Part shown: positions 1-17,286 of the stretch, in pieces
Layout of the letters: the number at the start of each line of letters is the position of its first letter
Position numbering within the stretch: the stretch's first letter is position 1
Origin: an uncultured virus (IMG/VR IMGVR_UViG_3300035698_018446)
Lineage: Duplodnaviria > Heunggongvirae > Uroviricota > Caudoviricetes
IMG/VR virus record: IMGVR_UViG_3300035698_018446
Direction: 5' to 3' (one strand)
Length of the DNA stretch: 64,000 nucleotides
The notes under the pieces: model-generated
Database searches by the model: none
What the model was told of the DNA's origin: nothing
What the model saw: only the letters and a program-made list of their open reading frames with translations
Position numbers and translations under genes: made by a program

Positions 1-93
1 GAGGAGGGTGATGTACCGTTCCACATGCTCTAAAACAGGGAAAACTACGTTGCAGATCTCGATCCCGTCAATCATCACGATAACCTTGAACAT
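1..93 (-). CDS. hypothetical protein (partial, runs off the window start)
   Basis: ATG at 93 on the minus strand after a purine-rich AAGAGAG; open to position 1 (MFKVIVMIDGIEICNVVFPVLEHVERYITLL...). Confidence 0.45.
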   Translation of the reverse strand, partial: MFKVIVMIDGIEICNVVFPVLEHVERYITLL

Positions 94-258
94 TTGATTC
101 TCTCTTTAACTAGGCACCGTTTCTTCCGGACTCCCGAACCTTTCGGGACTCTGTGCAACCGTCATCCTCATCACACGGACACATACGCAGGGGATCTCAA
201 ACCTGCAAGAATTCTTTTTAAAATTTTCTAAGTGTAGGTTAAACATTAGGAGGTCCCC

Positions 259-765
259 ATGTCTGCTGTCTTTGTTCGTGGTACGATTGTTGGCCGTGGT
301 GATCTAGATCTCTATACGGTGGATAACGCAAATCAGCCCGTCAATGTCTTCGAGATCACCTACGCGATCTATGATGCCACGACGGGTATTGACGTGCTTA
401 TTGGTAATGCACAGCGGGCTCCTATCAATCCTGACGTGGGCGAGTATTACGCGGCATTAGAGATCCCCTCCAATGCCCGCCCCGGTTTGTATCGTCTCCG
501 CTGGACTTTTAAAGAAAATGCCCTGTCTCTCTCCGTTCTCGTGGTAGAGGAGTTCACTGTTCTTGTGGAGGAAGCGATCAATCCGCTTAGTTTGTATTCC
601 CCCACGGTCCTCGATATGGTCCGTAGGCTCCGTATCCTACTCCGGGACAACTGTATTGATGGTGACGAGATCGTGAGAATCCGCTACCCTCAAGAGGGGG
701 GAGGGTATACGGAAATGAATGTATCTTTGCAAGACCTATTTCGAGGCATCAAACATGCACCCTGA
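259..765 (+). CDS. probable virion (neck/adaptor-like) protein, N-extein (131 aa) fused to split-intein N fragment (37 aa)
   Basis: AGGAGG SD; ...LRILLRDN followed by intein block A-like CIDGDEIVRIR (Cys codon 652-654); ORF stops 37 aa later. The virion role is inferred from context only. Confidence 0.75.
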   Translation: MSAVFVRGTIVGRGDLDLYTVDNANQPVNVFEITYAIYDATTGIDVLIGNAQRAPINPDVGEYYAALEIPSNARPGLYRLRWTFKENALSLSVLVVEEFTVLVEEAINPLSLYSPTVLDMVRRLRILLRDNCIDGDEIVRIRYPQEGGGYTEMNVSLQDLFRGIKHAP

Positions 766-907
766 ATTACAACCCCTTTTGGATCGGTATGGTCTCACCT
801 TGGCTCAGTTGCAAGCTGTTATGCCGGGAAAAAAGGCTGGGGATTTCAGGTGTGGACGGAACGTGATTATTTGCAGGAGGTGTTATCATGTGGGAAAAAG
901 TGATTGA
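755..907 (+). CDS. 50-aa Cys-containing micro-ORF between the split-intein halves
   Basis: GAGG then ATG at 755, overlapping the upstream stop; MHPELQPLLDRYGL...CGRNVIICRRCYH; overlaps the next start. Confidence 0.4.
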   Translation: MHPELQPLLDRYGLTLAQLQAVMPGKKAGDFRCGRNVIICRRCYHVGKSD

Positions 908-1754
908 AGCCTTTCAAGATGGGACACTGGAGATCCTATCCTACAACGAACAGGGCGCTGCGGAGTGGTGTCCTTTACAAGACGTGCATAGAAACCCTAT
1001 GCCCCCCATGCAAGACCTCTTACGCATCCACACAAGCTCAGGTGCGAGTCTTAGCGTCACTTCAGAGCATAGGGTTTATGAAGATCCCTTGTCCTGTGTA
1101 CCTGCGAAGGATCTAAAGGTGGGGAATAGGTTATCCGATGGGTCTTGTATCGTCAATATTGAGACAAGGCCCCTACCCCTTCACGTTTATGATGTCACTG
1201 TGGCGAATAATCATAATTTGATTCTTCTTAATTCCGGAGTGGCCGTTCATAACTGCCCCGACAGAAACTATCGTTTCAGGCCCCCCACGCACGAAGATAC
1301 TATTAACCGTTTCAATCGTGTCTTTGGATACATTTGGGAAGATTATGAGCTTGTCGAATACATGGAGCGCGGTGTTGACTTCGTGAATCTCTACCCCCCT
1401 GAAACTCAATTTAACTCTATTGACATCATGGCTCAGGCGAAGCCCGCTTGGAGGCAAATGATTCTCATGGCCGCCATGGCTCACGCCCTTATGGCACTGT
1501 CAATAAATTGGACCTCGGAGGAGTTTTCGTACTCTATCGGTGGGATTTCATTAGACATCTCAAAATCGTCTCAGTACGAATCGTTAAAAGGGAACGCGGA
1601 ACAACAGCTCGACAAAATGCTGGAAGCCAAGACTCGGACCGTTAAGATCATGAGAGGACTAAAGCAGAGCAGGTACGGCTTAGGTGTACGTTCCGCATTC
1701 GGACCAGTTTTGGGTGGTGGAGTGGTCTCCCCTAGAAAATACGTTGGCGTGTGA
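888..1754 (+). CDS. split-intein C fragment (122 aa) fused to C-extein (166 aa) of the same probable virion protein
   Basis: Own strong SD (AGGAGGT-N6-ATG); intein block B (SVTSEH, TxxH), block F (VYDVTVANNHNL) and block G (VAVHN/C; Asn 1251-1253, +1 Cys 1254-1256). Confidence 0.85.
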   Translation: MWEKVIEAFQDGTLEILSYNEQGAAEWCPLQDVHRNPMPPMQDLLRIHTSSGASLSVTSEHRVYEDPLSCVPAKDLKVGNRLSDGSCIVNIETRPLPLHVYDVTVANNHNLILLNSGVAVHNCPDRNYRFRPPTHEDTINRFNRVFGYIWEDYELVEYMERGVDFVNLYPPETQFNSIDIMAQAKPAWRQMILMAAMAHALMALSINWTSEEFSYSIGGISLDISKSSQYESLKGNAEQQLDKMLEAKTRTVKIMRGLKQSRYGLGVRSAFGPVLGGGVVSPRKYVGV

Positions 1755-1811
1755 ATCTTGTCAACATGAAAAATAGAGAAACTTTTTAGATCACGACCCG
1801 TCTCTGTGTTG

Positions 1812-1990
1812 GAGCGCGAACCCCTAGTGATCGTAGAAACCCTAGGAGGTCCGCGATCCCATAAGGTGTTGAGAATATTAGGTTCAATTAGAAGGTCGAT
1901 TTCCGTTGACGCCCTAAGTGATCTTGATTAGAAAGGTTCGCGGATGAGGGGTCTGAACATGGCCTGCTAGGCCAAGTTTAGACCCCCACC
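1812..1990 (+). promoter_or_regulatory. CRISPR leader with sigma70-like promoter and 5' hairpin
   Basis: GCGCGAACCCC...GGAGGTCCGCG and GGTTCGCG motifs reminiscent of type I-C leaders; TTGACG(1906-1911)-N17-TAGAAA(1929-1934); hairpin 1948-1986. Confidence 0.7.
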
Positions 1991-2171
1991 CTTTAGATCC
2001 CTCTTTGGAGGGGTCTTGGATTGAAACCGAGATTTAGGTGCAAGAAATCTGTGGTCATAATGCTTTAGATCCCTCTTTGGAGGGGTCTTGGATTGAAACA
2101 TGTCCAACTCGCCGTCTCGCATCGCGGTGGTCCACTTTAGATCCCTCTTTGGAGGGGTCTTGGATTGAAAC
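1991..2171 (+). CRISPR. CRISPR mini-array, 3 identical 37-bp repeats and 2 spacers of 35 bp, type I-C-like, no cas genes in window
   Basis: CTTTAGATCCCTCTTTGGAGGGGTCTTGGATTGAAAC at 1991, 2063 and 2135; 9-bp stem AGATCCCTC/GAGGGGTCT followed by the 11-nt TGGATTGAAAC handle. Confidence 0.95.
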
Positions 2172-2239
2172 TCATCATGAGCGCGGCGGGGATAGCGTGG
2201 TATTAGATTTCGTCCGCCCTATGTGGACTGATAAATCTA

Positions 2240-3895
2240 TTACCCATCCACAATAGCCTGAAGAGCTGCGATCATGTTACTCGGAAGTTTCGGTGACATG
2301 AGGTTTTCATCCACAGCCCTCAAGAAAAGCTCGGCAAGCCCTACCTTAGATTTGGAGCGGTTGAACTCTTTGAGGTAGTACCCATCATTATTAGGGTAAT
2401 TGTTCTTGTCAATACTCGTATGAAGCAACGACCTGTATTCTATCGCCAATTTAACGTCTAGCGCATAAAAATTGGTCCCCAAAATCAAGCCGTAACCTTG
2501 ATAAATGGTCCATGTGTTGAAGTTGTACTCCCTAGCGAGGTACATCTTGATCTTGGGTGCAGTCTTCGGGGCTTTCTTCACCCCTAAATTGATGAAGATG
2601 TCCTCCAAACTAACATAGTTCCCCAACCCATATATCCTTTCTGTAGGAGTCCAAATAGCAGGTAGAGCGTAGATTGTAGGATTATCGGGCTTGGTCAAGT
2701 TATGCCACTGCAACGCGGCCTTCAACCCCTTCGTGACATCTGTGGGCGAGATTACACCCTTCTTCATAGGTGTAGTGCTTACTGATAGACTCCAAATACG
2801 ACTATCTTTTCCACCCATAATATTATTGACGATCTCGTGCTTGCACGTCACATAAACAACGTTGGAGCCGGACGTACCGCAGGCGACGAAGCCATAAGTG
2901 TATTTAGAGCTTTCATCACCACTGTAGTTTCCGGGAGCGTCCACATCAGCCGTGCGCAATATCCATGAGATATTGGGGGGAAGGGTGACGGAAGCTAGAG
3001 CTTGCTCAAAAGTGACGGTTTCTCCCTTAGGCGGCTGGTAGTAAGACTTCTCAGCTTTGGGGGGTTCTTGCGAATCAGCACCCGCTAAGAAATCGGATTG
3101 GGACATTGAGCGTCCCCTCTTCGCTAAGAGCGGAAGTCCCTTCGAGAAATCCCAAACTTGAGAGATGGAGGCTACCCTAGGGTTCGCGGGCTTGGTCAGC
3201 GAGGCGCTCGCCAAGATAGAGGCTAGACCTTTTTGGATGGATGCGGCGGAAGTGTCAGGATCAAGGGCTAGCTTGGAAGCGTAAACCTTTGCTCTCCACA
3301 GATCCTCATCAGGGGTTGCAGGGTCCGTATAGGTGTTGTATGTATGGACCATGAGAAGAAAGAAATGCTGATTACTAGAGACACCATAAGCTACATTACC
3401 AAATTCTTGCTTCTGAACCTCGTTATCACTCCCATTTTTACTTGACCACACTTGCTCCGTCAGGAATACCCACTTCACGTCCGAAGGGATATTAACCTTT
3501 CCTATCGCTTCTCCGATAGTGACCACGGTCTTGGGTACCGTCTTAGGTCTAGGAGGCTCCTGATCGGGCCTAGGGGAGGGTCTAGGGGAGGGCCTAGGGG
3601 GAGCCTGAGAGGGTCTTGGGGGTGCGCTACGCGCGTACCCTCGCGAGGGTGCGCGTACCCCGTCAAGAATGTCTTTAGCGGCATTCAGCTCCACCATCTT
3701 ATCCATATCACCACCGAGATCAGGGTGGTGCTTACGGGCGAGCTGCCTCCAAGCGGACTGCACCTCTGATTTCGAGGGGGAAGCGCCAGACTGGAATCCT
3801 AAGGTCACGAGAGCATCATCCCAAGTGAGGTCAACGTTGGCGGCTTGGCGCGCGAGCCATGCCATGACGATACGACGGGTAGCGGAGCGGTTCAT
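2240..3895 (-). CDS. J-domain (DnaJ-like) protein with Pro-rich linker and a tandemly duplicated unknown domain
   Basis: N-terminal J-domain with HPD motif (AWRQLARKHHPDLGGD...ELNAAKDIL); SD GAGGTG; two copies of a VTxxEA...IPxxVxW...TKPxNP domain. Confidence 0.8.
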   Translation of the reverse strand: MNRSATRRIVMAWLARQAANVDLTWDDALVTLGFQSGASPSKSEVQSAWRQLARKHHPDLGGDMDKMVELNAAKDILDGVRAPSRGYARSAPPRPSQAPPRPSPRPSPRPDQEPPRPKTVPKTVVTIGEAIGKVNIPSDVKWVFLTEQVWSSKNGSDNEVQKQEFGNVAYGVSSNQHFFLLMVHTYNTYTDPATPDEDLWRAKVYASKLALDPDTSAASIQKGLASILASASLTKPANPRVASISQVWDFSKGLPLLAKRGRSMSQSDFLAGADSQEPPKAEKSYYQPPKGETVTFEQALASVTLPPNISWILRTADVDAPGNYSGDESSKYTYGFVACGTSGSNVVYVTCKHEIVNNIMGGKDSRIWSLSVSTTPMKKGVISPTDVTKGLKAALQWHNLTKPDNPTIYALPAIWTPTERIYGLGNYVSLEDIFINLGVKKAPKTAPKIKMYLAREYNFNTWTIYQGYGLILGTNFYALDVKLAIEYRSLLHTSIDKNNYPNNDGYYLKEFNRSKSKVGLAELFLRAVDENLMSPKLPSNMIAALQAIVDG

Positions 3896-4016
3896 GAGAT
3901 CACCTCGGTGTTAAGTAAGCACTATCGTCTCATTTTTATTAAAAAATCTTGAGCTTTTCTTTTCCGAATATCTATGCTTTGATGCGCGGGGGAAACACAC
4001 AATCAGGAAGGCACAC

Positions 4017-4439
4017 ATGATCAAGGATATGTCGGGTTGGATTCGGGAGATGGAGTCCATGGGGGGTTGTTACATATCGAAGAAAGACCAGAAAGACCTC
4101 TGGTTATGGTTGGGCACGATAGACCCTGAGCAACGCCTGTATTGGATGAAGCGTGTGCTTTCGCTTCCTCTCTCCAATAGCGTGATGACCTTCACGGCGG
4201 TTCAAAACATCTCGAATTATTCGGGTCACATGACCCCGGACTTCTTCAGCCTCACGCCCTACGCCGAAGCGGCGTTTTACGAACAGAAGGCGCGTGACGG
4301 TGAGACGATTATGGATTCCTTGGCCGCGAGCTTCATCATCCTCACTCCGTTTTACAAGACCTTGTGGGATGTCCGATCCGGGAGTACGCGGATAAGGGGA
4401 TCACATGCGGAGTGCTCTGGGAGCGTGAGCTACCCGTAG
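4017..4439 (+). CDS. hypothetical protein, C-terminally truncated paralog of 8445-9125
   Basis: Closely matches the N-terminal ~120 aa of 8445-9125 up to KTLWDVRSG, then diverges and stops early. Confidence 0.65.
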   Translation: MIKDMSGWIREMESMGGCYISKKDQKDLWLWLGTIDPEQRLYWMKRVLSLPLSNSVMTFTAVQNISNYSGHMTPDFFSLTPYAEAAFYEQKARDGETIMDSLAASFIILTPFYKTLWDVRSGSTRIRGSHAECSGSVSYP

Positions 4440-4450
4440 GCGGATAGACC

Positions 4451-4530
4451 TTGACGCCTCAAGTGATCTTGAGTAAAAAAGTTCGCGGATGACGGGGATG
4501 AACACGGCCTGCAAGGTTGGGTTCATCCCC
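4451..4530 (+). promoter_or_regulatory. second copy of the CRISPR-leader promoter and hairpin
   Basis: TTGACG(4451)-N17-TAAAAA(4474), GTTCGCGGATGA and hairpin GGGGATGAAC/GTTCATCCCC; homologous to 1906-1986. Confidence 0.8.
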
Positions 4531-4535
4531 ACATC

Positions 4536-4572
4536 TTTTAGCTCTCCATTAGGCGGGCGCTTGGATTGAAAG
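4536..4572 (+). ncRNA. solitary diverged CRISPR repeat unit (candidate crRNA mimic / Racr)
   Basis: TTTTAGCTCTCCATTAGGCGGGCGCTTGGATTGAAAG, 27/37 identical to the array repeat with the handle retained (TGGATTGAAAG); no second repeat follows. Confidence 0.65.
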
Positions 4573-4601
4573 AAACAGAATAAACAAACCGAAGCAGAGA
4601 T

Positions 4602-4994
4602 ATGAATCTCAAGAAAAAAGAAAAAGCTGATATTTTTGCTAGGATGTGCGGTCTATGTCCTGAGATTGATGCAGAGTTGCTCTTAATGCCTCCTGTTGAA
4701 GTACAAGGTCCAACACACAAGAATCCCTATATGGCTTCTTGGCGCTTGACGTTTGGCGTGAGTCGGCGTTCAACAGGATTCTGTGTGAGACCTGAAACAA
4801 TTGAACAAGCGATCTCGGACCTTGTTATACGAAAGGGAGACAGCATCATGATGCTCTTTGTAGTGCCCGAAGGCTCTTCAAAGATAAGCCCCCTGACGCA
4901 CACTTTTATCATGCGACTACCCTTGAGCAAAGAAGACTGTGCAAAGCTTCCAGAGGGCCTGCTCGAAACGCTCAAGCCCCTTATGGAAGGTTAG
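4602..4994 (+). CDS. hypothetical protein
   Basis: 130-aa ORF directly downstream of the solitary repeat. Confidence 0.6.
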   Translation: MNLKKKEKADIFARMCGLCPEIDAELLLMPPVEVQGPTHKNPYMASWRLTFGVSRRSTGFCVRPETIEQAISDLVIRKGDSIMMLFVVPEGSSKISPLTHTFIMRLPLSKEDCAKLPEGLLETLKPLMEG

Positions 4995-5182
4995 ATGCGC
5001 ATCTTGACGCGTATATGATCCTCTGTGTATGTGATGATTCCTGCGGATAGAAGATAGCACAGCTCCAGATACAAAGCTTCCTTATCCTCTTCCGGGTGTG
5101 CCTCCCATAAGGCTTGGACCAAAGCGCGGGGTGTCTTGGGTTCTTTTTGGAGTTCCCGACGGATTCTGTCTTCTGTGTTCAT
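4991..5182 (-). CDS. small protein, possible winged helix-turn-helix
   Basis: MNTEDRIRRELQKEPKTPRALVQAL...LCYLLSAGIITY; helical pattern ending in an LxxxGxIxY wing-like motif. Confidence 0.45.
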   Translation of the reverse strand: MNTEDRIRRELQKEPKTPRALVQALWEAHPEEDKEALYLELCYLLSAGIITYTEDHIRVKMRI

Positions 5183-5194
5183 GGGCAATCCTAG

Positions 5195-5228
5195 TGTTTT
5201 GTAGTGGTTACGCAACCACTACAAAACA
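5195..5228. repeat. perfect 15-bp inverted repeat with 4-nt spacer between two divergent small genes
   Basis: TGTTTTGTAGTGGTT-ACGC-AACCACTACAAAACA. Confidence 0.9.
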
Positions 5229-5266
5229 ATCTAGCACAAAACTTTCCCATCAGATACGCAAACGAC

Positions 5267-5479
5267 ATGATCTTAGGATCGTGTGACGATCACTTAAAGA
5301 AAGTACTATGCACTATGATGCTCAATGAAGATAGTGCGCAGGAAGACCTTATGCGTAACATTCTAAATAGATGCCCCGACATGATTACGATTGAAGTGGG
5401 CGGATTGCTAAGGCAGATTCAATCTTTAATGATAGAGGGCGTTATAGGTTATGCATTGTCTTATACAAAATTGAAATAA
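5267..5479 (+). CDS. small protein, possible winged helix-turn-helix
   Basis: MILGSCDDHLKK...IQSLMIEGVIGY; same LxxxGxIxY ending as 4991-5182. Confidence 0.45.
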   Translation: MILGSCDDHLKKVLCTMMLNEDSAQEDLMRNILNRCPDMITIEVGGLLRQIQSLMIEGVIGYALSYTKLK

Positions 5480-5529
5480 CTTCTAATAATTCTGCACCGT
5501 GGAGTTACGGTTTAAGAAAGAGGTTGGCG

Positions 5530-6858
5530 ATGTATGCATTTGATAAGGGTAATTGGGGCGTAGTAACGAACACGGTGCAACGGTATACGTCCCTGCACTT
5601 CGATAGTTCAAAGCTGCAAAGTATCTTAGCAAAGATGGTCTTTTCATGGCAAAGAGAACACCTCAAGGATCGTATTGATCGCTCTTACTTCATTCCCACT
5701 CCCGTAGTGGTGAAAGTCCTCAAGAGTCCAGAAGCTATCGAAGTAAAGACGGGCATAGAGATTGTCTTACCTGACGAGTTCGCAAAGCCCGACAACGTTC
5801 AGTATCAGGTGACTCTCACATTCGCGTTGCTCAGCGATAAGAAGACCTTTGAGATACCATCTTGCGAAGTGCTGATGGAGGGTAAAGGGCCTTTCACTTT
5901 CACGGGCGCAGAGATCAAGAAGAAGTTCAAGGTGGTGCTTACGCAGCCAGCTCAGAACGATGTTGACGGGTGGCGCAAGATGTTGCTACAGATGATGATG
6001 GGAGTGCATGAGACGGCGCAGGATTTCTTGGACAAGAAAGTTGGCCCCGCGCTGGCGAAAGACATTCAGCAAGGTCATGGCGGCGCGAAAGCATTGCCTA
6101 CAAATGCTGGCCGTCCTAGTACAAAACAGCAGACGCTGTTTGCTTCAAACAAAAAGGAGATTGGAATGAATCGTGAATTGGTGAGAAAAGGATTTGCACA
6201 TTTGGTGTCGAAAGTTCCGGCGGTCATTGCGCAGGACATGATGCATATTGAGAGTTACATGAAGCTGGCATCAAAGCCCGCGATGTCTCAAGACGCTCAG
6301 GCGAAGAAAGCTGTGTTTGCTTTTCTCCCAGCGGCGAAGAAAGCGGCGTTCAAGGATTATCGCGTCCCCATCCAAATCGCTCAAGGTTTATCTGAAGAGT
6401 ATATCGGTGGTAACGAGTATGATGGTCAGGATGTATGGTCGATGAGCATTGCGTACAAGATTCCCGGATCTTATTTCTTCGATGATCAACAGGCCGAACA
6501 CGAAGTTGAGCGCGCAATACGCAGAATTCCAAACCTGAATTTCGACGGTCTTGAGGTGCAGGGTCAAGATGAGAACCAGATATTGGTGATGTCTTTCTCT
6601 GTGTTCGGGGCATCGAATCGTGGTGTCACGGCTTCCGTTGTTATGAATCGTAAGAGTCTGTACGCTTTGATCCTCAAGACGCTACCCCTCAAGTATAGTG
6701 CAATCCATTATGATATGGCAATTTTTGCTCAGGTACTTCTAGGTGTGTTGGGGAAGCCTAATGTGTTCAAGACTGCGCAAGAATGGTCTGAGCTAGAATG
6801 GGTTGAAATGATCTTGAATCACTCGCGTCACTATGAAGGTCTCGCATTTCTGGAGTAA
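5530..6858 (+). CDS. hypothetical multidomain protein, possibly internal virion protein
   Basis: Long ORF, SD AGAGGT before ATG 5530; second in-frame SD and ATG at 6166. Confidence 0.7.
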   Translation: MYAFDKGNWGVVTNTVQRYTSLHFDSSKLQSILAKMVFSWQREHLKDRIDRSYFIPTPVVVKVLKSPEAIEVKTGIEIVLPDEFAKPDNVQYQVTLTFALLSDKKTFEIPSCEVLMEGKGPFTFTGAEIKKKFKVVLTQPAQNDVDGWRKMLLQMMMGVHETAQDFLDKKVGPALAKDIQQGHGGAKALPTNAGRPSTKQQTLFASNKKEIGMNRELVRKGFAHLVSKVPAVIAQDMMHIESYMKLASKPAMSQDAQAKKAVFAFLPAAKKAAFKDYRVPIQIAQGLSEEYIGGNEYDGQDVWSMSIAYKIPGSYFFDDQQAEHEVERAIRRIPNLNFDGLEVQGQDENQILVMSFSVFGASNRGVTASVVMNRKSLYALILKTLPLKYSAIHYDMAIFAQVLLGVLGKPNVFKTAQEWSELEWVEMILNHSRHYEGLAFLE

Positions 6859-6866
6859 AGGTTTTC

Positions 6867-7163
6867 ATGCACCTTGATTTCTCAGATACGGGGCACATTT
6901 TTCGTCACATCGATGGTCTGTTAAAGATCGGGGATTATGCGACGGTAGACGATCTCTTGCTCGTCATGTCTCTTGATGACTTTCAATCTACCATTCGTAG
7001 CCATCCTCATGGCGTGTTCGTGGCGCTCATGGCTTCTGCGCCTAGAAGTGCTAGACCGTATCTGTCGCACCTCTCTAAAGCGGTAGATAACATCGACCGG
7101 GTACTAGACAGTATGGGTTGGAGCGCGGAAGAGCGCCGATCTATCTTGAACGCATATCGATAA
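6867..7163 (+). CDS. hypothetical protein
   Basis: 98-aa ORF between the upstream gene and a terminator. Confidence 0.6.
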   Translation: MHLDFSDTGHIFRHIDGLLKIGDYATVDDLLLVMSLDDFQSTIRSHPHGVFVALMASAPRSARPYLSHLSKAVDNIDRVLDSMGWSAEERRSILNAYR

Positions 7164-7207
7164 AGAAAACCCCCTGCTTGATACACACCAAGCAGGGGGT
7201 TTTCTTT
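7162..7207. terminator. bidirectional intrinsic terminator
   Basis: AAAGAAAACCCCCTGCTTG-N8-CAAGCAGGGGGTTTTCTTT between convergent genes. Confidence 0.85.
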
Positions 7208-7220
7208 TCGGGAGAATTAC

Positions 7221-8324
7221 TCATGAGACCAACGCGGCCTTTAGAAGATCCAAAACTTCCATAGGGGGTTTCGTTTCAAAGTAATTCTTTTCGATGAGGT
7301 TAATCATGATTTTACAGATATATGCTTTGTTTTTAATCTTATCAATGTTTTTGCGGATAAACCCTCTCGATGGATTACTTCTCGTGACGATGGCAGAAGC
7401 CATTGTCCAGTATAAATTCTTGTTAGGTACCGTCTCCCAATCCAACTTCCACGACTTTTCTCCTATAAAGATATAAAGCTCTTTCTGCCCCTGATTGTAG
7501 GCGGCAGGTACGGCCAGATCTACCTGAAGCGAACCGTCTGATGTCGGTGTTGGCCCCTTCTTGAGCCCCCTGACTACAAAGAATTCCGACATATTCTCAC
7601 CACGCCCACGGTGCTTCGTTTGCTCAGAAGGCGTCCAATCTGCATCTAACTCATGCACGGAAGGATTACCCGGCTTAGTAATTTCAGCCTGAACCATGAG
7701 AGCCTTGATCGCTTTCGTAGCGGCGGCGACATCGAGCTTCCCTTTCTTGAGGGCTCCCGTTTGGAGGATGCACGACCACACGAAAGATTCTCTACTTTCA
7801 TAAATAGAATAGGTCTGGAATTCCTTTGAAGACTTCACAAGCAGAACAACCATTTGAGTGCTGGTTTGCCCTAGAGCGACATAGCCGCTGGAATTGTGAG
7901 ACCCTTCGGATCCTTCATAGTTGTTCACAGCGCGCAGTTCTTCCGTAATGAAAATCCAATTGACTCCCGATGGAATGGAGACATTACGGAAGGCTTCTGC
8001 GAAGGTCACAGTTTCGCGAGAAGTAGCGTGCGGTGACGTGTCGTAATCTTCTTGTGTTGGTACGCGCCCGCGCGAGGGCGCGCGAACGCCATCAAGGATG
8101 TCCTTAGCTGCGTTAAGCTCCACCATCTTGTCTACATCGCCCCCAAGATCCGGATGATGCTTGCGCGCGAGCGCGCGCCACGCGGATTGAACTTCTGCCT
8201 TGGATGGCGACATTCCAGCGTGAAATCCCAAAGTACTAAGGGAGTCTTCCCAAGAGAGATCCACGTTAGCGGCTTGGCGCGCCAGCCATGCTCTCACGAT
8301 ACGATATGAAGCTGTACGATTCAT
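7221..8324 (-). CDS. J-domain (DnaJ-like) protein, paralog of 2240-3895 with a single copy of the unknown domain
   Basis: Start reassigned to MNRTASY (SD GAGGT) by homology; HHPDLGGD motif; N-terminal ~85 aa highly similar to 2240-3895. Confidence 0.8.
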   Translation of the reverse strand: MNRTASYRIVRAWLARQAANVDLSWEDSLSTLGFHAGMSPSKAEVQSAWRALARKHHPDLGGDVDKMVELNAAKDILDGVRAPSRGRVPTQEDYDTSPHATSRETVTFAEAFRNVSIPSGVNWIFITEELRAVNNYEGSEGSHNSSGYVALGQTSTQMVVLLVKSSKEFQTYSIYESRESFVWSCILQTGALKKGKLDVAAATKAIKALMVQAEITKPGNPSVHELDADWTPSEQTKHRGRGENMSEFFVVRGLKKGPTPTSDGSLQVDLAVPAAYNQGQKELYIFIGEKSWKLDWETVPNKNLYWTMASAIVTRSNPSRGFIRKNIDKIKNKAYICKIMINLIEKNYFETKPPMEVLDLLKAALVS

Positions 8325-8444
8325 TGAATTACCTCTTGAATATCTTGACAAATCTAGGAATGTACTTTTTTTAAATGAAATTGAGAGTCTTGCCATTCTT
8401 CTTAAAGTAGGGGTATACTTCTTATAGGACATGAGGAGGTCAAC

Positions 8445-9125
8445 ATGCTCGATATGTCAGGATGGATTCGAGAGATGGAATCGATGGGAGGCGCTTATGT
8501 GTCGCAGAAAGATCAGAAAGATTTGTGGCTGTGGTTAAGCACGTTGGACCCTGAGCAGAGGTTGTACTGGTTTAAGCGTGTCTTGGCATTTCCGCTCTCT
8601 ACCCGTGTGCTGACTTTTGCCACTGCGCGTAAATCGAGCCCTCAAATGAACCATGTCATGCCCGACTTCTTCAGTCTCACGCACTATGTACAACATGCTT
8701 TTTCCGGACAATATGCGGAAGACGGCGAGACGATACAAGACTCTTTGGCGGCGAGCTTCATTGTCCTGAGTCCTTTTTACAAGACCTTGTGGGATGTGCG
8801 ATCTGGAGCCATTCAGTGTGGTGATTATAGGGGTACCCTTCAGGGCGGCTCTTATTACGAGGGATCTCCTATCATCCAGAGATCCTATGTATTCGCGGCA
8901 AGCCTTTTGGATATTCTATCGCCCTGTATCGAGAAACATCCCGAGGTATCGGAGCTTATCAAGAGGGGTGAGCCAAACCCCAATCAAGCGGTTCCTACCC
9001 CGCTGCGAGTTTACATCAGGGAGCGGCGACCAATAGCAGCTATTACTTACCGTCTGCTCATGCAGCAATGCGTAGAGTACACGGATCTTAAATCTGTCAA
9101 GACGTTAAATACGAAGGTAAGATGA
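8445..9125 (+). CDS. hypothetical protein (full-length paralog of 4017-4439)
   Basis: SD GAGGAGGT; DMSGWIREMESMGG...DQKDLWLWL shared with 4017-4439. Confidence 0.75.
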   Translation: MLDMSGWIREMESMGGAYVSQKDQKDLWLWLSTLDPEQRLYWFKRVLAFPLSTRVLTFATARKSSPQMNHVMPDFFSLTHYVQHAFSGQYAEDGETIQDSLAASFIVLSPFYKTLWDVRSGAIQCGDYRGTLQGGSYYEGSPIIQRSYVFAASLLDILSPCIEKHPEVSELIKRGEPNPNQAVPTPLRVYIRERRPIAAITYRLLMQQCVEYTDLKSVKTLNTKVR

Positions 9126-10132
9126 AAACACCACTAAATACGATCTATCTTGGTCCTTGTTTGGCTATGCTGGAGAGTCTTGAAGACAACTCAGTAGACT
9201 TGATTGTGTCTTCTCCCCCTTACAACATAGGGAAAGAGTATGAGCGTAAGCTGGATCTTGATGTGTATTTGGGGCAGCAGCTCCTTGTGTTGATGGAGTG
9301 TCTACGCGTGCTAAAGAGTGCTGGGTCGCTTTTTTGGCAAGTGGGGTCTTCCCTTATGGACGGGATTACTATCCCTTTAGATGTACCTTTTTTTCAAATG
9401 CTGTGTGACATGGGTATGCGCCCAAGAAATCGCATTATATGGGTTCGTCAACACGGGTTACATTCCACTTTGAAATTCTCAGGCAGGCATGAGACGGTCT
9501 TGTGGTTCACGAAGACAGATGACTATTTCTTTGATTTAGACCCTATTCGTGTGCCTCAGAAGTATCCCACCAAGCGATACTTTAAGGGACCAAAGAAGGG
9601 AGAGCTGTCCTGCAACCCTAAAGGTAAAAATCCGGGTGATGTGTGGGCATTTCAAAATGTCAAACATAATCACGAAGAGCAAACGATGCATCCCTGTCAA
9701 TTTCCAGAAGCTATGATTGAGCGAATAATGTTGAGTACGACAAAGATTGGAGACGTTGTGTGTGATCCCTACATGGGGGTGGGCACCGTAGCCGTAGTGG
9801 CAAGAGATCACGGTAGGGCTTTCGTAGGCGCGGAATTGTCACCTGAATATCATAGTGTTGCTCTGCATCGTTTGAGCGGGCAGCCCCAAGAAGGTGGTTC
9901 TTTCCCAAACCTCAAAACCTTACGAGATTATGTGGAAGCTACGGGCCTTCCAATAGAGAATTATAAGTTCTCAAGACAGGTCGGAAAAAAGGCTTCCCCA
10001 CGATCATCCTCGAAAATATATGAAGAACCCCACCATCTCCAGATCTTATTTGACAATTTGGTGGATGAAGATCCCCTTGAGGAATCTTCTAGTGACCAAA
10101 AAATTCCATCGTTATTTGATTACGAAGATTGA
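9122..10132 (+). CDS. site-specific DNA methyltransferase (N4-C/N6-A, beta class), resembles the M.BglII family; orphan
   Basis: Motif IV SPPY precedes motif I DPYMGVGT; HNHEEQTxHPCQFP and FPNLKTLR segments recalled from BglII-type MTases; no endonuclease adjacent. Confidence 0.9.
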   Translation: MKTPLNTIYLGPCLAMLESLEDNSVDLIVSSPPYNIGKEYERKLDLDVYLGQQLLVLMECLRVLKSAGSLFWQVGSSLMDGITIPLDVPFFQMLCDMGMRPRNRIIWVRQHGLHSTLKFSGRHETVLWFTKTDDYFFDLDPIRVPQKYPTKRYFKGPKKGELSCNPKGKNPGDVWAFQNVKHNHEEQTMHPCQFPEAMIERIMLSTTKIGDVVCDPYMGVGTVAVVARDHGRAFVGAELSPEYHSVALHRLSGQPQEGGSFPNLKTLRDYVEATGLPIENYKFSRQVGKKASPRSSSKIYEEPHHLQILFDNLVDEDPLEESSSDQKIPSLFDYED

Positions 10133-10208
10133 CCGACTTTGTTTGAATCGAATCTCTCCTGCCGATCTTCATGTGTTTCGTCCTGAATTCTAGTCAAAAA
10201 GATGTTTC

Positions 10209-10247
10209 AATGCTTACGCTCATATAGGAGCGTAGGCATTTCTTTTT
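10209..10247 (+). terminator. intrinsic terminator after the methyltransferase
   Basis: AATGCTTACGCTC-N6-GAGCGTAGGCATT followed by TCTTTTT. Confidence 0.7.
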
Positions 10248-10398
10248 ATGAAGTGAAATTATGAGGGACTTGTTGTGTTCACATTCACGGATCGGAAGCG
10301 GTTAAGAGTCTCGTCTGCCTTCGGAGGGTAAACATCAACCGCGATGCGTCCGGCGATTTTTACTTTGAAATATCTAATCCCGGAATGAGAGCTTGAAA

Positions 10399-13300
10399 AT
10401 GGCAAATACCAAGAAGTCTCCCAATTACAGTCAGACGCTTCTAGCGCAGCTTCGTCGCGCCTTCGGCGTGCGTCTCTTCGCTTTTTTCGATCTCTACACA
10501 AAAATGTACGGAATGGCGTCCGGCTTTGAGGACGTACCGGAAGAATTGGCTGGAGAGTTTCGTCAGGTCATGCGTTTAGTGACGCAGAGTTTGGCGAAAG
10601 ACGAAACGCGTGAAGCATTGGCAACACAAATCTCGGAGATCATGCCTGTCTTGCGTCGTATTGAGAAGGGAGCAGATATGGATAATATCTGGCGCCTCTT
10701 GTCACAAACGATGCTCGAATCCGTTGTGACAGTAGCTCGTGATCGTGATGTTTATCTAAAGAGCCGTCGAATTCACCCCCAAGGTTGGGGATACTTCCAG
10801 AAAATGAAGCCGGAGGAAGAGGCATTAGAGAAATTGCGTCTCCGCGATCCCGAAGCCTATGCGATCACGCAGCACGCTAAAGAGATTCGCAAAGACGTAG
10901 ATAAGGCGATCACGAAGAAGATTGAAGGGTCTGGATACTCAGTAGGTAAGAAGTCTTTGCTGGGTAAGGTAGTAAATATAGGGACGAATGCAGTAGGCGA
11001 AGAGCTTGTCTTTGACGATGATGGCGATGTCTTGCCTATTGAAGATTACATCGTCAAGCGTAAAGAGTTCTTGAAGTCTTATAACGCTCTGTCCAAGACG
11101 TTCAATGTGGATCTTGAAGGTCTACGCGGTGCGAGCGCAGAAGACCTTGAGCGGATCGCAGGTCAGAAAGTCGAGTATGTGTCTCTTACGGACGATAGAG
11201 CCAAGCAGAACGCCCTGACTCGTATCTATCCCACACGTCGTCTGGGAGATAAGAAGGTCATCACGGAAGGCCGTTTCAAGGGTATCTACCTTGATGACAT
11301 GGTCAACGTTGCGGGCCGCATGATCGAGGGGGTTGCTTACGACTTTGATCCCAAGACGGGCATTCCGAAGGTGATGGAATCGCGCGCATCTGGTACTCTT
11401 GAGGTGGGGAACGTCCGTGAGCCATATGTGACTGTCGCGGATGATGGCCGTCTGTTCCTCAAGATCCCGGCAACGCACGAGTTTTCAGAAGTGCGTAAAG
11501 CCTTGTCTTTGGTTTCTAAGTTTAACACGGGAGTGGAGAAAGTCAAGGGTGGTAGATCTTCTTTGTTCTACTTTGAGCCCAAAGATTTCGGTTCGGTGCG
11601 TGAAGCTCTAGGTTCGTTGGCTTTGTCGAAACGGGCCGCACAAGTGATTGAGAAGTATTTCCGGACTTTGGCGAAGCATGAGCTGGCGACATCGAAAGAT
11701 AACCTTGGGAAGTATGATACGGAATCCCTTGGAGGCTTCAAGAAGGATCGCTCTTTATATACAGTCCAGAAGAAAGCACTCGCATGGGTGGATTCTCGCG
11801 GCGGATCTGGCGTTATGGCTCTAGGGTCAGGCGTGGGAAAGACGAGCTTGGCTCTCGGAGCTATGAAAATGGCGATGAACGATGCCGATACGGAAGGAGC
11901 CTCATTCCGCGCTCTGTATGTCTGTCCAGCTTCGCTTAAGGGGAACTTACCTTCTGAAGCACATCAGTTCTTCGAGGATCCTAAGCGGATGATCGAGCAG
12001 ACAGATATTATGTCTTATGCACAGTTTTCGAAGGCGGGAAAGAATGATCCCAACCTGCTCAATAACTACAATATCATCCTGTTTGATGAGGCGCAGGCTT
12101 TGGCATCGGGTGGATCGATGGCGGCAAAGATTGCTTCCCGCCCGCACCCGCGCAAAGTGTTTCTGACGGCTTCCCCCATGGAGCGCCGTCCGGGTGAGGT
12201 CTATACGCTGGCAGCTTTGGCGAATAATGAGGATGTGACTCAGCCCCTCTTCCGCAAGAATCGTCTCAATTTTGAGAAGCGTTTTTGTGTGGAGATTGGT
12301 GGACGCTTTGTAGGCGTGAACCCCGACCCCCTCGTGCGTCGTGATCTTAGGACGTGGGTACGTCAGAATATGTTCCACGCCGATAAGCAGAGCGTGGAGG
12401 AATACCTCTTGCCCGATCTCCAGAAGGTGCCCCGCGCTCTCACCCTTGATCCCGCAGTTGAAGACGCCTACCGTCTTGTGACAAAAGAGATCAAGGACAT
12501 CTTGGCGGGAATGGTCGAGAAGTTCCGCGACCAAAGAGGCACGCCGAATGCAAAGTCAAAGCTGGTATCTTCTGCTCGTATGAAGCTAGCAGGTCCTTTT
12601 GCCAAGCTCATGACGCTCGCTAATCTACCTTCAAAGTTGGTCCCCGGCGCTGCAAACCCTAAGATCGATGCTGCATCGCGTATCATTGAAGAGAAGATTG
12701 AAAAGAGTGGGCGTACAATTCTGTTTACGGACATTCCGGATATGGCGATTGAGACGGCTCGTCAACTGTCTGTGGACTATCCGGGTACGCGCCACGCTTG
12801 TGGACTCTCGAACAAGATCCTGATTTATAAGAACGGCGAAGTAGAGAATTCATTTAGCCCGCGCATCTATAAGTCAGATAAGCGCGAATACACCAAGGAA
12901 GAGTGGCAGATGTACGTGATGGAGAATTACATCAGGTCTAACGACTATGATGTTGTCACGGCCACGCTCACGGCGAGTTATGCGAAAGGTCACAACCTTC
13001 AGGCGTTCACAACGGTGATCCACTTGGATCGAGACTCATGGAATGCTGAGATGATGCAACAAAGAGAAGCACGCGCTTGGCGTCAAGGTCAGAAGCAATC
13101 TGTTGAATCCATCACGCTGGACATGACGTATTCTAATCCATCCAATGATCAAGATCGCACGCTGGATGAGATCATGCGTTATAGTCAGGAGATGGAAGAG
13201 GATCTGTTCAATCAAATCATCGTTGCATCTCAGACGCAGGCTCTAGGTCAAGAGTATTTTGAGATGGGTCAGGAAGCTACCTCAACATACTATGCGCAGC

Positions 13301-13482
13301 GAAAGGCGTTTGATCTTTCCATGTCTCCTTATGCGAACGTTCATGCCGAAGCTGCGAAGGGTGAAAACAATGGTGCTATGCTCGTGTCCAATAGCGAAGA
13401 TATCACCCTAGAAGATGTTCAGAATATGGGGATTCCTTTCACGGATTTCCGCGACCCCACCAGCCTTATCAATGAGGATTGA
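10399..13482 (+). CDS. SNF2-family (superfamily 2) helicase-like ATPase with long N-terminal extension
   Basis: Walker A GSGVGKT, motif Ia VCPASL, motif II FDEAQ, motif III LTASP, motif VI QREARAWRQGQ. Confidence 0.85.
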   Translation: MANTKKSPNYSQTLLAQLRRAFGVRLFAFFDLYTKMYGMASGFEDVPEELAGEFRQVMRLVTQSLAKDETREALATQISEIMPVLRRIEKGADMDNIWRLLSQTMLESVVTVARDRDVYLKSRRIHPQGWGYFQKMKPEEEALEKLRLRDPEAYAITQHAKEIRKDVDKAITKKIEGSGYSVGKKSLLGKVVNIGTNAVGEELVFDDDGDVLPIEDYIVKRKEFLKSYNALSKTFNVDLEGLRGASAEDLERIAGQKVEYVSLTDDRAKQNALTRIYPTRRLGDKKVITEGRFKGIYLDDMVNVAGRMIEGVAYDFDPKTGIPKVMESRASGTLEVGNVREPYVTVADDGRLFLKIPATHEFSEVRKALSLVSKFNTGVEKVKGGRSSLFYFEPKDFGSVREALGSLALSKRAAQVIEKYFRTLAKHELATSKDNLGKYDTESLGGFKKDRSLYTVQKKALAWVDSRGGSGVMALGSGVGKTSLALGAMKMAMNDADTEGASFRALYVCPASLKGNLPSEAHQFFEDPKRMIEQTDIMSYAQFSKAGKNDPNLLNNYNIILFDEAQALASGGSMAAKIASRPHPRKVFLTASPMERRPGEVYTLAALANNEDVTQPLFRKNRLNFEKRFCVEIGGRFVGVNPDPLVRRDLRTWVRQNMFHADKQSVEEYLLPDLQKVPRALTLDPAVEDAYRLVTKEIKDILAGMVEKFRDQRGTPNAKSKLVSSARMKLAGPFAKLMTLANLPSKLVPGAANPKIDAASRIIEEKIEKSGRTILFTDIPDMAIETARQLSVDYPGTRHACGLSNKILIYKNGEVENSFSPRIYKSDKREYTKEEWQMYVMENYIRSNDYDVVTATLTASYAKGHNLQAFTTVIHLDRDSWNAEMMQQREARAWRQGQKQSVESITLDMTYSNPSNDQDRTLDEIMRYSQEMEEDLFNQIIVASQTQALGQEYFEMGQEATSTYYAQRKAFDLSMSPYANVHAEAAKGENNGAMLVSNSEDITLEDVQNMGIPFTDFRDPTSLINED

Positions 13483-13486
13483 TGAC

Positions 13487-13768
13487 ATGAAGCGATTAGC
13501 CAGTAGTGCCCCCCAAACGATTGATGATTGGGATATCTATATTCAAGAATTGAGTGATGAAAACCTGTGGGTTCAGTCCAAAGCTGCGAACACGTTGGAC
13601 TTCGTTCAAAGGCTCGCGCGCGAGGGCGCGAGCCCTGCGGCGATTTCCGAAGTGTTGGAGATATTCGCCCTAGAGCTTCAGGATCGGAAAATGTTGGTCC
13701 CTGAGCGTGGAGAAGGTTCTTACTTGTCTTACCGCGCCCTTCTTCGTGAAATTCAGGTAGAGGACTAA
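13487..13768 (+). CDS. hypothetical protein
   Basis: SD GAGGA, ATG 13487 just after the helicase stop; operon-like spacing. Confidence 0.65.
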   Translation: MKRLASSAPQTIDDWDIYIQELSDENLWVQSKAANTLDFVQRLAREGASPAAISEVLEIFALELQDRKMLVPERGEGSYLSYRALLREIQVED

Positions 13769-15139
13769 ATGCCTTACCCCCCTTCTAATGGTAGATATCC
13801 TCCCTTTGACGGGTACAAGGATCGTGCGACATCTCCATTGGAGTGGGTGGATACTTATTACCCTCTTGCCCCTCTAAACATCAACATCCAATGGTCGTTC
13901 AACTCCGTACTACCTGCTATGGACATTTATTGGGACCCCCCGGAATGGCTTGTGTTTAACGGGAATTTTAGGATTCTTGGGATCAACATTTATCGTTCTT
14001 TAGACTCGGAGTACGGACCCTATTATCGTCTTAACCCATTACCCTTGGGTTCGACTTTCTATCGAGACATGACTACAAATCAAGATGTGGTCATGGAAGA
14101 CGTGTCTGGGCAGTTCTTGGCGAGAGGGCGGGCGGATGAAGCTGGGAAGTACATATTTCGAGTCCAAAATTATCCAATTGTCAAGGATGGCTTGAACAAT
14201 ATCTTGGCGGATAATCCTTTAGACCTCAAGGTCTTTGTTGATGGCGTAGAGGTGATCCCTGCGCGCGTGTGGGGGGAGACAGGTGAGGTTGAGCTTCGCA
14301 CGGCGGTTCTATCTGATAACGCGACAAATGAGCGGATACATCCAATCTTACCTCGTGAGGATAGTGTCGTCACATGCTCATATAGCTACAACACCAACTT
14401 CATCGCAAACGCTTTATTCCAGCGCACTTTCTATCGTCTCACGACGGTCGGGATGGATGGGTTCACGGGAGAGCTAAGGGAGACGCCCCTACACTTATCC
14501 TCAGCCCGCCACCATCATCAGATGGAGAATTTGGACTATATCTGGACGGAGGCTATCCATCGTAACAAGTGGATCTTGTATCAGGGGGGCGAGCGCGTTA
14601 AGATATTCATCCATAAGTATGTGGGTGTTCCTTGTCCTTGCTTTGACCAGACTCTTGGTCAAGCAAAAAACAATTGTTTCATTTGCTTTGGAACTGGAAT
14701 TCGTGGAGGCTACGAAGGGCCTTATGATATTCTCGTAGCGCCTCCAGAAGCAGAACGTTCTATTCGCCAGACAGAGATCGGCTTGCGTCAAGAAATGACA
14801 TATGAGACGTGGACAGGTCCAAGTCCACTTCTCAGTCAGCGTGACTTCATGGTCAAGCTCAATGGCGATCGTTATTCGGTGGGGGCTCCTCGTCTCCCAA
14901 CGAATCGCGGAAATGTCTTGCAACAACATTTCCAAATAGGGATCTTGGATTCCAGAGATATACGTTATAAGGTGCCTGTCACGGGTACAGCACCTTTAAT
15001 GTATCCTCAAACACGCACGACTGGGCATGATGACGATCCCAATAAGGTGGATTATCCTCAGATCACGGAAAAGTGCAATATTCCGGATGAGCGTGAGCAG
15101 AGAGGTCGTACACCGACCTACGAAAACATTGTATACTGA
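13769..15139 (+). CDS. putative neck / head-tail connector protein
   Basis: FN3-like start (WDPP...GINIYRS); CPC...CFICFGTG zinc motif followed by a head-closure-like beta region; structural operon context. Confidence 0.6.
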   Translation: MPYPPSNGRYPPFDGYKDRATSPLEWVDTYYPLAPLNINIQWSFNSVLPAMDIYWDPPEWLVFNGNFRILGINIYRSLDSEYGPYYRLNPLPLGSTFYRDMTTNQDVVMEDVSGQFLARGRADEAGKYIFRVQNYPIVKDGLNNILADNPLDLKVFVDGVEVIPARVWGETGEVELRTAVLSDNATNERIHPILPREDSVVTCSYSYNTNFIANALFQRTFYRLTTVGMDGFTGELRETPLHLSSARHHHQMENLDYIWTEAIHRNKWILYQGGERVKIFIHKYVGVPCPCFDQTLGQAKNNCFICFGTGIRGGYEGPYDILVAPPEAERSIRQTEIGLRQEMTYETWTGPSPLLSQRDFMVKLNGDRYSVGAPRLPTNRGNVLQQHFQIGILDSRDIRYKVPVTGTAPLMYPQTRTTGHDDDPNKVDYPQITEKCNIPDEREQRGRTPTYENIVY

Positions 15140-15153
15140 ATAAGGAGTCTGTT

Positions 15154-15408
15154 ATGGATCGCATGAGAATGGCTACTCGAATCGCTCGTATTGTTCTAGC
15201 TGCTGATTATGTCGCTTCGACCCCAATCGAGAAAGTAATGGGTGAGATCCTCACGAGCCAGATGGGGATCACGAACGCTCCAGAAAAGGTGTTCAAAGAT
15301 GCTGTCAAGAAGTTAAATGCTCTTTTGGAAGAGAACGACTTGGAGTTGGATCTCAAGGATCCTGACATTTACCCACACATTCAAGCTGCACTAGCGAGCG
15401 TAGTATGA
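15154..15408 (+). CDS. hypothetical protein with RIAR-type N-terminal motif
   Basis: SD AAGGAG; MDRMRMATRIARIVLAA. Confidence 0.65.
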   Translation: MDRMRMATRIARIVLAADYVASTPIEKVMGEILTSQMGITNAPEKVFKDAVKKLNALLEENDLELDLKDPDIYPHIQAALASVV

Positions 15409-17187: not shown

Positions 17188-17286
17188 AACATGCTTGACG
17201 CTAAGAAAAGAATGAACGATAAAAGGTTCAAGAAGGTTGGCGACGTTCAACCCACTCATACGATAAAACATGCGGAGAGGCTTGCT

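Follow-up and report, generated by a model that had tools for sequence, protein, structure and literature searches.

What does a CRISPR array of only three repeats do in a tailed phage, when no cas gene lies beside it? The question is raised by a 64,000-nucleotide (nt) stretch of DNA from an uncultured Caudoviricetes virus (IMG/VR record IMGVR_UViG_3300035698_018446), hereafter the window, in which an earlier note, made from the letters alone, had described a type I-C-like mini-array with a complete leader. We observed that the promoter-like element and the structured leader of this array occur a second time in the window, where they precede a lone, diverged repeat. On balance, and with modest confidence, we favour the view that the phage carries a mini-array with its own leader together with a lone repeat resembling the solitary-repeat RNA anti-CRISPRs (Racr), both acting through a type I-C or I-C-like Cascade that is most probably the host's.

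The mini-array, the lone repeat and their leader cassette

The features of the array region, all on the plus strand, are the following.

1813–1905, plus strand: distal part of the leader, before the promoter; the match to a second metagenome contig starts at 1813 (~89% identity), with no match further upstream
1906–1934, plus strand: promoter-like element TTGACG (1906–1911), 17 nt, TAGAAA (1929–1934), read from the sequence; putative promoter
1935–1990, plus strand: proximal leader with a bipartite hairpin (arms 1948–1965 and 1969–1986), from the fold and the conservation of pairs
1991–2027, plus strand: repeat 1 (37 nt), from identity and fold
2028–2062, plus strand: spacer 1 (35 nt), between repeats 1 and 2
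2063–2099, plus strand: repeat 2, from identity
2100–2134, plus strand: spacer 2 (35 nt), between repeats 2 and 3
2135–2171, plus strand: repeat 3, the last, from identity
2172–2206, plus strand: trailing sequence that would bear a 5′ handle, without a downstream repeat (no in-register fourth repeat)

Comparison of the repeats bore out what the earlier note had stated: three direct repeats of 37 nt are 100% identical and follow each other at 72 nt from start to start, and the two 35-nt spacers between them are unique. At least three near-identical repeats of 23–50 nt, regular spacing and unique spacers of similar length are the generic marks of a CRISPR array, and all of them are present here; no open reading frame (ORF) lies between the repeats. 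The 12-nt tail of the repeat, with up to one mismatch allowed, was found at four sites in the window against 0.56 expected, a number that none of 100 shuffles reached. The possible third spacer that had been proposed from 2172 on does lack a flanking repeat, as was claimed, for the in-register position after 2206 is identical to the repeat at only 15 of 37 nt, a level reached by 3.2% of the window positions. The stretch is present in three salt-lake metagenome DNA runs, whose contigs we aligned to the window; RNA runs are absent from those listed as containing it. A contig of metagenome run X1 likewise has repeat 1 joined through spacer 1 to repeat 2; the salt-lake contigs leave the array end (2104–2400) uncovered.

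The RNA of the array repeat is predicted to fold into a 4-nt 5′ end, a 9-base-pair (bp) stem with a 4-nt loop, and the 11-nt tail UGGAUUGAAAC (−15 kcal/mol, z = −2.98). This corresponds to a 4/9/4/9/11 layout, where the tail starts with UGG and ends with GAAAC.

A promoter of the form TTGACG-N17-TAGAAA had also been claimed upstream of the array. The motif is indeed present at 1906–1934, but it is missing from the list produced by a generic sigma-70 scan, which demands a T at the last −10 position. It recurs in the window only at 4451–4479, as TTGACG-N17-TAAAAA (two matches against 0.10 expected), as part of a 134-nt copy of promoter and leader (75% identical) that precedes a fourth, diverged repeat. 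This second module (4438–4572), 2.5 kb downstream of the first, and the ORF that follows it have the features below.

4451–4479, plus strand: second promoter-like element TTGACG, 17 nt, TAAAAA, from motif and alignment
4480–4535, plus strand: second leader with a hairpin (arms 4494–4510 and 4514–4530), from the fold and the conservation of pairs
4536–4572, plus strand: solitary degenerate repeat with its tail kept and its stem weakened, from 27/37 identity and fold
4602–4994, plus strand: ORF of 130 amino acids (aa) that begins 30 nt past the solitary repeat, from the ORF list

The distance from the end of the −10 element to the repeat is 56 nt in either module, and the lone repeat has a conserved promoter-like element, not a strong match to the consensus, less than 250 bp upstream. 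The 100 nt from the leader to repeat 1 of the array gave a predicted fold of −49 kcal/mol (z = −5.17), and none of 200 shuffles was equally stable; the second leader copy folded at −38.4 kcal/mol (z = −3.55). All 16 pairs of the leader hairpin are kept in both copies, three of them with changes on both sides and three with a change on one side, and none is broken. Such compensatory changes are suggestive, although they come from two sequences only and hence allow no statistic. When operator-like repeats were sought in the promoter, we found short and weak ones only, and the leader core pattern had no match in IMG/VR.

The lone repeat is identical to the array repeat at 27 of 37 positions and has an intact 12-nt tail, CTTGGATTGAAA. 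Six of the nine stem pairs are kept, one of them through a double (compensatory) change, and the unit resembles a CRISPR repeat in sequence and structure, though its stem is weak. A second repeat 66–79 nt downstream was not found. A gap of 30 nt separates the lone repeat from the 130-aa ORF, which is encoded on the same strand and for which we observed no Pfam match at E ≤ 0.01, no PHROGs match at 1e-5 and no PADLOC match at 1e-3, and matches in Atlas stayed within the range of chance.

Near this second module, a contig of run X1 joins position 3875 to 4320 and skips 444 nt, that is, most of the ORF at 4017–4439; the matched parts are 3819–3875 and 4320–4378, with loose ends on both sides. This join may reflect a population variant or a paralogous context. 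Another site, on the minus strand at 10185–10225 and intergenic between methylase and helicase, has a 7-bp hairpin followed by the tail with one mismatch, and may be a chance occurrence or a terminator.

A third module came from the metagenomes. A second contig (2,495 nt in X1, and a 250-nt piece in X2) matches 1813–2027 with 24 differences in 215 nt (~89% identity), and its flanks differ on both sides, as it diverges before 1813 and straight after repeat 1. Its depth was 5.09 in X1 and 3.2 in X2, compared with 2.8–6.5 and 2.0–3.1 for the window's own contigs. Since both flanks diverge and the depth is within the range of the window's contigs, this module is not an allele at the same place; either it lies at another site of the same genome, or it belongs to a close relative that co-occurs. 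The cassette exists in at least three copies. None of the listed differences of the third copy falls in the promoter hexamers or in the first 13 nt of the proximal leader, and at position 1997 this copy shares its differing base with the lone repeat.

The probable partner CRISPR system and the search for cas genes

As described in PMC8524198, type I-C repeats have a stem-loop followed by an 11-nt 3′ overhang with U-G-G as its first bases, which is the Cas5c cut site and gives the 5′ handle; Cas5c reads mainly this U-G-G past the cut and the downstream nucleotides, whereas Cas6 enzymes read the stem-loop and the upstream bases. Table 1 of PMC10989782 gives a Thermus thermophilus HB27 I-C repeat of 37 nt with the layout 4/9/4/9/11, and the Xanthomonas citri repeat printed in PMC9504256 ends in the same 11 nt as the phage repeat. 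The usual I-C repeat length in print is 31–32 nt (PMC9504256, PMC8524198). The earlier note had read the stem and 11-nt tail as the Cas5d-processed I-C geometry, and this reading agrees with the repeats published in these three sources. The phage repeat has the I-C geometry of a stem followed directly by an 11-nt UGG tail, and it falls within the length and layout range of I-C repeats as extended by Thermus. We take the Xanthomonas citri array to be of type I-C. Outside the tail the phage repeat is unrelated in sequence to the I-C repeats, it is linked to no I-C cas genes, and the tail is also known from repeats of types I-B and I-D. Among the latter, 37-nt repeats from cyanobacteria share the last 10 nt, but there a short stem runs into an 8-nt handle.

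We searched for the repeat in order to find the host and the subtype, as the earlier note had suggested, and the searches revealed no host array that contains it. A pattern of two repeat tails had no match in IMG/VR. In genomes it gave eight loci, of which we read four as CRISPR-like (L001, L003, L004 and L005) and four as plain tandem or other repeats (L002, L006, L007 and L008); in metagenomes it gave 10 loci, and the phage's repeat was in none of them. In the genome and metagenome collections searched, no repeat identical or nearly identical to it was found beside cas3-cas5c-cas8c-cas7. One genome that shares the tail (L003/G001) has a 32-nt I-C-shaped repeat and encodes Cas5d on another contig. 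Rfam gave no match in the window at the gathering score, and at E ≤ 10 only sub-threshold ones (CRISPR-DR9 with 15 bits against 45).

A tail identical to the phage's 11 nt was also seen in L012 (MWWB01007406.1), a contig of 2,732 nt with overlapping ends. It has a mini-array of three repeats and two spacers, where the 37-nt repeat has a 10-bp stem and a 4-nt loop, and a single 447-aa ORF without Pfam or PADLOC match. This contig is probably a circle of about 2.6 kb.

Next, we considered whether the window encodes Cas proteins. Its 56 ORFs of at least 50 aa (greedy, non-overlapping set) were all compared with PADLOC, and 50 of them with Pfam. Core Cas families were found by PADLOC in none of the 56, which upholds the earlier statement that the 64 kb hold no cas gene; the sole CRISPR-labelled PADLOC match is a generic DEDDh exonuclease (36986–37534). 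The proteins encoded around the modules had no Cas-like match either by Atlas (130- and 226-aa ORFs) or by PDB sequence search (444-, 551- and 226-aa ORFs), where the 551-aa protein showed weak J-domain matches only. Just before the leader lie two ORFs of the structural module that are conserved and syntenic in the phage LR745208.1 and in the IMG/VR relative L063, and hence no cas operon abuts the leader.

How far this absence extends depends on the size of the genome. The closest match in an isolate-phage collection for two of the proteins was LR745208.1, an uncultured phage of 485,034 bp (35–41% identity). The window is collinear with its 357–331 kb region, and with IMG/VR contigs as well, and tblastn matches in LR745208.1 were found for 16 of 55 window proteins. 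An ortholog of the ORF at 888–1754 is present on 11 IMG/VR contigs, of which the closest, L063/G005, shows protein identities of 59–86% and the same G+C content of 49%. As this contig has 113 kb at a CheckV completeness of 25%, the genomes are estimated to be near 450 kb. These comparisons identify the element as a huge tailed phage with relatives of ~450–485 kb, of which the window is about one seventh. The earlier description of the array as an orphan holds for the 64-kb window but is not established for the whole genome of ~450 kb.

The two modules lie in an accessory island.

1755–10392, no strand: accessory island bearing both repeat modules (mini-array and solitary repeat) along with two J-domain-like genes, several small ORFs and an orphan N4/N6 DNA methylase; absent from L063/G005

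In L063, about 240 nt lie between the ortholog of the ORF at 888–1754 and that of the SNF2 helicase gene (10393–13482) next to it, and nucleotide comparison with G005 gave no match between window positions 1530 and 11185; these two observations define the 8.6-kb island. Its DNA was found in none of the loci of the 11 relatives. The location, together with an orphan methylase, fits a role in anti-defence or competition. The earlier suggestion that identical repeats point to recent activity is weak when taken alone, but it is consistent with the absence of the island from the closest relative.

LR745208.1 has units of a similar kind. We found five exact 11-nt tails against 0.23 expected, and two more with one change, which gives seven units (at 117116, 123108, 420968, 435263, 435368, 481748 and 482014; loci L020, L024, L027 and L028). 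In these units a short stem precedes the tail, the stem sequence varies with its pairing mostly kept, and nothing else around them is conserved. The stop codon of a preceding open frame marks the beginning of four of the seven, three end 0–5 nt short of a long same-strand ORF, and two units lie 105 nt apart, away from ORF starts. Several units occupy exactly the space that separates the stop codon of one cistron from the start codon of the next. Pfam searches of the 485 kb gave no Cas5 or Cas7 match. From the specificity of Cas5c set out in PMC8524198 we infer that a Cas5c-directed element should preserve its tail and may leave the stem sequence free, which is the pattern of these units.

Proposed function, rival explanations and known systems

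Under the reading that we prefer, both modules would be transcribed early in infection by the host RNA polymerase. A Cas5c-type nuclease, most probably the host's, would then cut each repeat at the 3′ base of its stem, as the repeat geometry suggests. The array would yield two complete guide RNAs for loading into Cascade, with competing mobile elements as their most plausible targets. Each module would also yield an RNA with the leader hairpin and the repeat hairpin and without a 5′ handle; the lone repeat would give only this hairpin-pair RNA, plus a handle fused to the downstream messenger RNA (mRNA). The handle-less RNAs are candidate Racr-like decoys that would tie up Cas5c or Cascade subunits, and by analogy the solitary repeat is a candidate RNA anti-CRISPR.

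Several observations weigh against this proposal. The exact repeat had no match in IMG/VR, in 185,579 species genomes or in JGI metagenome contigs. The same 13-nt tail ends an unstructured 37-nt repeat that follows a complete I-B operon (Cas8b, Cas7b, Cas5b, Cas3b, Cas6b, Cas1, Cas2 and Cas4) in locus L014, and the tail is therefore not specific to I-C. The nearest genomic repeat, from Tumebacillus flagellatus (L005), is identical at 27 of 37 positions and has a Cas8a-like protein and Cas3 beside it, with no Cas5d in the genome; the best model for this Cas3 is I-G, at 197.7 bits against a cut-off of 400. The −10 hexamers TAGAAA and TAAAAA are poor sigma-70 matches. The stem of the lone repeat is no more stable than that of shuffles (z = −0.07), so that this repeat may be a decaying relic. 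The tail is absent from the contigs, mostly fragments, of all 10 IMG/VR relatives, and the feature is thus not conserved across the clade. An effector encoded by the phage itself is possible elsewhere, as ~85% of the genome lies outside the window. Finally, no protospacer was found for either spacer in the sequences searched, and a targeting role is a proposal.

The type I-C subtype claimed earlier fits the geometry of the repeat, but it is not established, given a tail shared with an I-B repeat, a nearest repeat that stands by an I-G-like Cas3, and no host array. We consider a partner of subtype I-C or I-C-like somewhat more likely than not, judging from the repeat geometry. The Tumebacillus flagellatus locus (L005, 1–1440) itself consists of two adjacent arrays with related but distinct 37-nt repeats, whose tails are GGATTGAAAC and GGATTGATAC, and only the Cas3 gene (I-G best, below the cut-off) and the Cas8a-like gene adjoin them.

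The spacers were compared with viral, plasmid and related sequences. No hits of at least 15 nt were found in LR745208.1 (485 kb), in the whole contigs G005–G007 (260 kb) or in the loci of the 11 relatives, and neither the window nor any other locus retrieved has a second copy of a spacer; the relatives available for this comparison were few and mostly fragments. Against a phage collection of 50,697 records, spacer 1 matched over at most 17 nt (E = 4), and its first 24 nt alone had no match in IMG/VR. Both spacers, taken together with the repeat 2 between them, gave one chance-level match among plasmids. In the phage collection, spacer 2 matched best to mycobacteriophage tail genes (phage Tonenili), over 26 of 29 nt (E = 0.03). 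The protospacer-adjacent motif (PAM) of type I-C is 5′-TTC. We rejected the Tonenili match as chance, for it amounts to 27/35 over the full length, has mismatches in the PAM-proximal seed and lacks a TTC flank. Inter-phage competition or silencing of host genes, which the earlier note had put forward, is not established by these searches.

A phage-borne effector is the first alternative to be weighed. The phage may encode its own system outside the window, and the array and lone repeat would then serve that system. PMC7162821 reports huge phages with a cas1/2-less I-C variant, in which there is a Cas5d-like protein and a helicase takes the place of Cas3; moreover, only about 14% of the ~450-kb genome is in the window, and the third module lies outside the window's context. 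However, none of the 56 window ORFs has a Cas match, structural genes and not a cas operon precede the leader, the island proteins resemble nothing Cas-like in Atlas or PDB, and LR745208.1, which is of complete length, has similar units with no Cas5 or Cas7 match in Pfam. We regard this explanation as unlikely.

Unlikely, too, is a passive relic, by which a host array fragment, leader included, entered a variable island through recombination, was duplicated, and is now without function. The absence of the island from the closest relative, the decayed stem of the lone repeat and the lack of spacer targets are all consistent with it. It does not readily account for the sequence conservation: no difference has arisen among the repeats of the array, the parts best kept across three diverged copies are the promoter hexamers and the proximal leader, the leader hairpin is held by compensatory changes with no broken pair, and the 12-nt tail is intact in a repeat that otherwise has 27/37 identity.

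A regulatory 'Cracr' array would work differently again, with guides that pair in part with a host cas promoter or a CRISPR-guarded toxin gene, so that the host Cascade silences these and immunity is disabled, rather than rival phages attacked. Viral Cracr arrays have been reported, nine of them two-spacer arrays against type I-C (bioRxiv 10.1101/2024.10.29.618823), and the failure to find a full-length protospacer is compatible with partial targets in the host. As we understand the same preprint, Cracr and Cre RNAs typically have degenerate repeats, whereas the repeats of the array described here are identical and intact and its spacers are normal and of equal length. We therefore hold this explanation to be quite improbable.

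It is also conceivable, though at present no more than speculative, that selection acts on the cassette of promoter, structured leader and first repeat, and not on the spacers. This cassette would make a handle-less, Cas5c-directed decoy RNA and would have been multiplied to at least three copies in the phage population; one copy would have been extended into an array that produces guides, and one and the same transcript would then jam the host I-C system and reprogramme it. The inter-cistron sites of LR745208.1 would then suggest that the lineage uses the host CRISPR RNA nuclease on its own mRNAs, for processing or as a distributed sink.

The weakest explanation, that the units are processing or translational signals of phage polycistronic mRNAs, cut by a host Cas5c-like or a phage nuclease, with the array as a by-product, draws on the LR745208.1 units at stops (4/7) and before ORF starts (3/7) and on the lone repeat 30 nt before the ORF at 4602–4994, but is very improbable, as there is no ORF between the array repeats, unique spacers of an equal 35 nt are a CRISPR hallmark, two LR745208.1 units 105 nt apart are not beside ORF starts, and no nuclease candidate was identified.

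The proposed combination of mini-array and lone decoy repeat has relatives among known systems. Cas-less viral mini-arrays with leaders are described for the Saccharolobus portogloboviruses SPV1 and SPV2 (Medvedeva et al. 2019, PMC6858448; review PMC11656645), and PMC6858448 states that the phage mini-arrays described earlier lack leaders. The array in the window is like those of SPV1 and SPV2 in that it has one or two spacers, no adjacent cas genes, an intergenic location in a virus and a promoter-bearing leader. Unlike those, it belongs to a huge bacteriophage and not to a small archaeal virus, and none of its spacers matches a related virus (LR745208.1, or the relatives' contigs and loci). 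Furthermore, the same leader here would also drive a lone repeat, whereas the standalone repeats mentioned in PMC6858448 are without a recognisable leader.

Solitary repeats act as RNA anti-CRISPRs in the Racr, which include the validated RacrIC1 against I-C (Camara-Wilpert et al. 2023, PMC10651486). The lone unit of the window agrees with the Racr as described there in being a repeat-like viral unit with no cas gene nearby and in an operon-like position with a protein-coding gene (RacrIC1 shares an operon with acrIC5); the Racr have a predicted promoter less than 250 bp upstream, where the lone unit has its putative one. It differs from RacrIC1 in that the neighbouring ORF has no known anti-CRISPR (Acr) relative in PHROGs, Pfam or Atlas, and its anti-CRISPR role is only a candidate one; it differs from Racr in general by a conserved, structured 56-nt leader that it has in common with a true mini-array. 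Compared with I-C repeats, Thermus shares the 37 nt and the 4/9/4/9/11 layout, and X. citri shares the 11-nt tail (PMC10989782, PMC9504256).

Compact cas-less arrays with a median of six repeats, some of them host-like, are known from huge phages (Al-Shayeb et al. 2020, PMC7162821). Here, too, a short array is found in a huge phage with no acquisition or interference genes in the window; a leader duplicated with a lone repeat is not described in the consulted parts of that paper. The Cracr arrays of bioRxiv 10.1101/2024.10.29.618823 are likewise two-spacer phage units acting via the host Cascade, including I-C, an action that is here proposed. They are defined there by likeness to host CreA/CreR RNAs and a PAM-proximal promoter match of at least 9, and in contrast to them the repeats here are intact.

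Cas-less viral mini-arrays, solitary-repeat RNA anti-CRISPRs (one against I-C) and compact huge-phage arrays are thus already known. What is less usual is that one cassette of promoter and structured leader, with its leader hairpin and in at least three copies, serves both a true array and a lone repeat. The shared cassette links two phage strategies that are usually told apart, namely borrowing host guides and jamming the host CRISPR system with decoy RNA. A structured leader with conservation of the tail only leads to testable predictions on what a Cas5c-directed decoy must keep, and calls of 'cas-less' made from windows of huge phages need the whole genome.

Other genes of the phage

From Pfam and PHROGs, the window encodes a tail sheath, a baseplate-related protein and other virion proteins, and further a chaperonin, a Lon protease, GyrB, a DHH phosphoesterase and an actin-like protein of the 'Volactin' family. 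A megablast search of window positions 1–20000 against the phage collection gave no match, and a search for relative loci with the 551-aa and 365-aa proteins found none.

The Volactin match and the salt-lake source raised the possibility of an archaeal host. This was set aside, as the structural genes match those of bacterial phages and the Lon protease has an N-terminal substrate-binding domain, which we take to be of the LonA type. The actin-like gene itself (17191–18288; Pfam 'Volactin', 1.2e-62) lies inside the structural module, with 48% identity in LR745208.1 and 67% in L063.

Upstream of the array, the ORFs at 259–765 and 888–1754 look like one gene in the relatives, since their orthologous parts (residues 1–134 and 122–224) abut in L063. 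Residues 39–122 of the second ORF match HINT/intein-splicing families just under the cut-off, and an intein-like or homing insertion may split this structural gene at 259–1754.

Within the island, the genes at 2240–3895 and 7221–8432, both on the minus strand, have weak J-domain (DnaJ) N-termini, and both match LR745208.1 at ~20.9–21.2 kb. Further downstream, the ORF at 20745–26885 encodes 2,046 aa, unusually long for a sheath protein; its N-terminal 1,700 residues have no family, and its last 350 residues form a tail-sheath domain (PHROG 2839, 1.4e-36).

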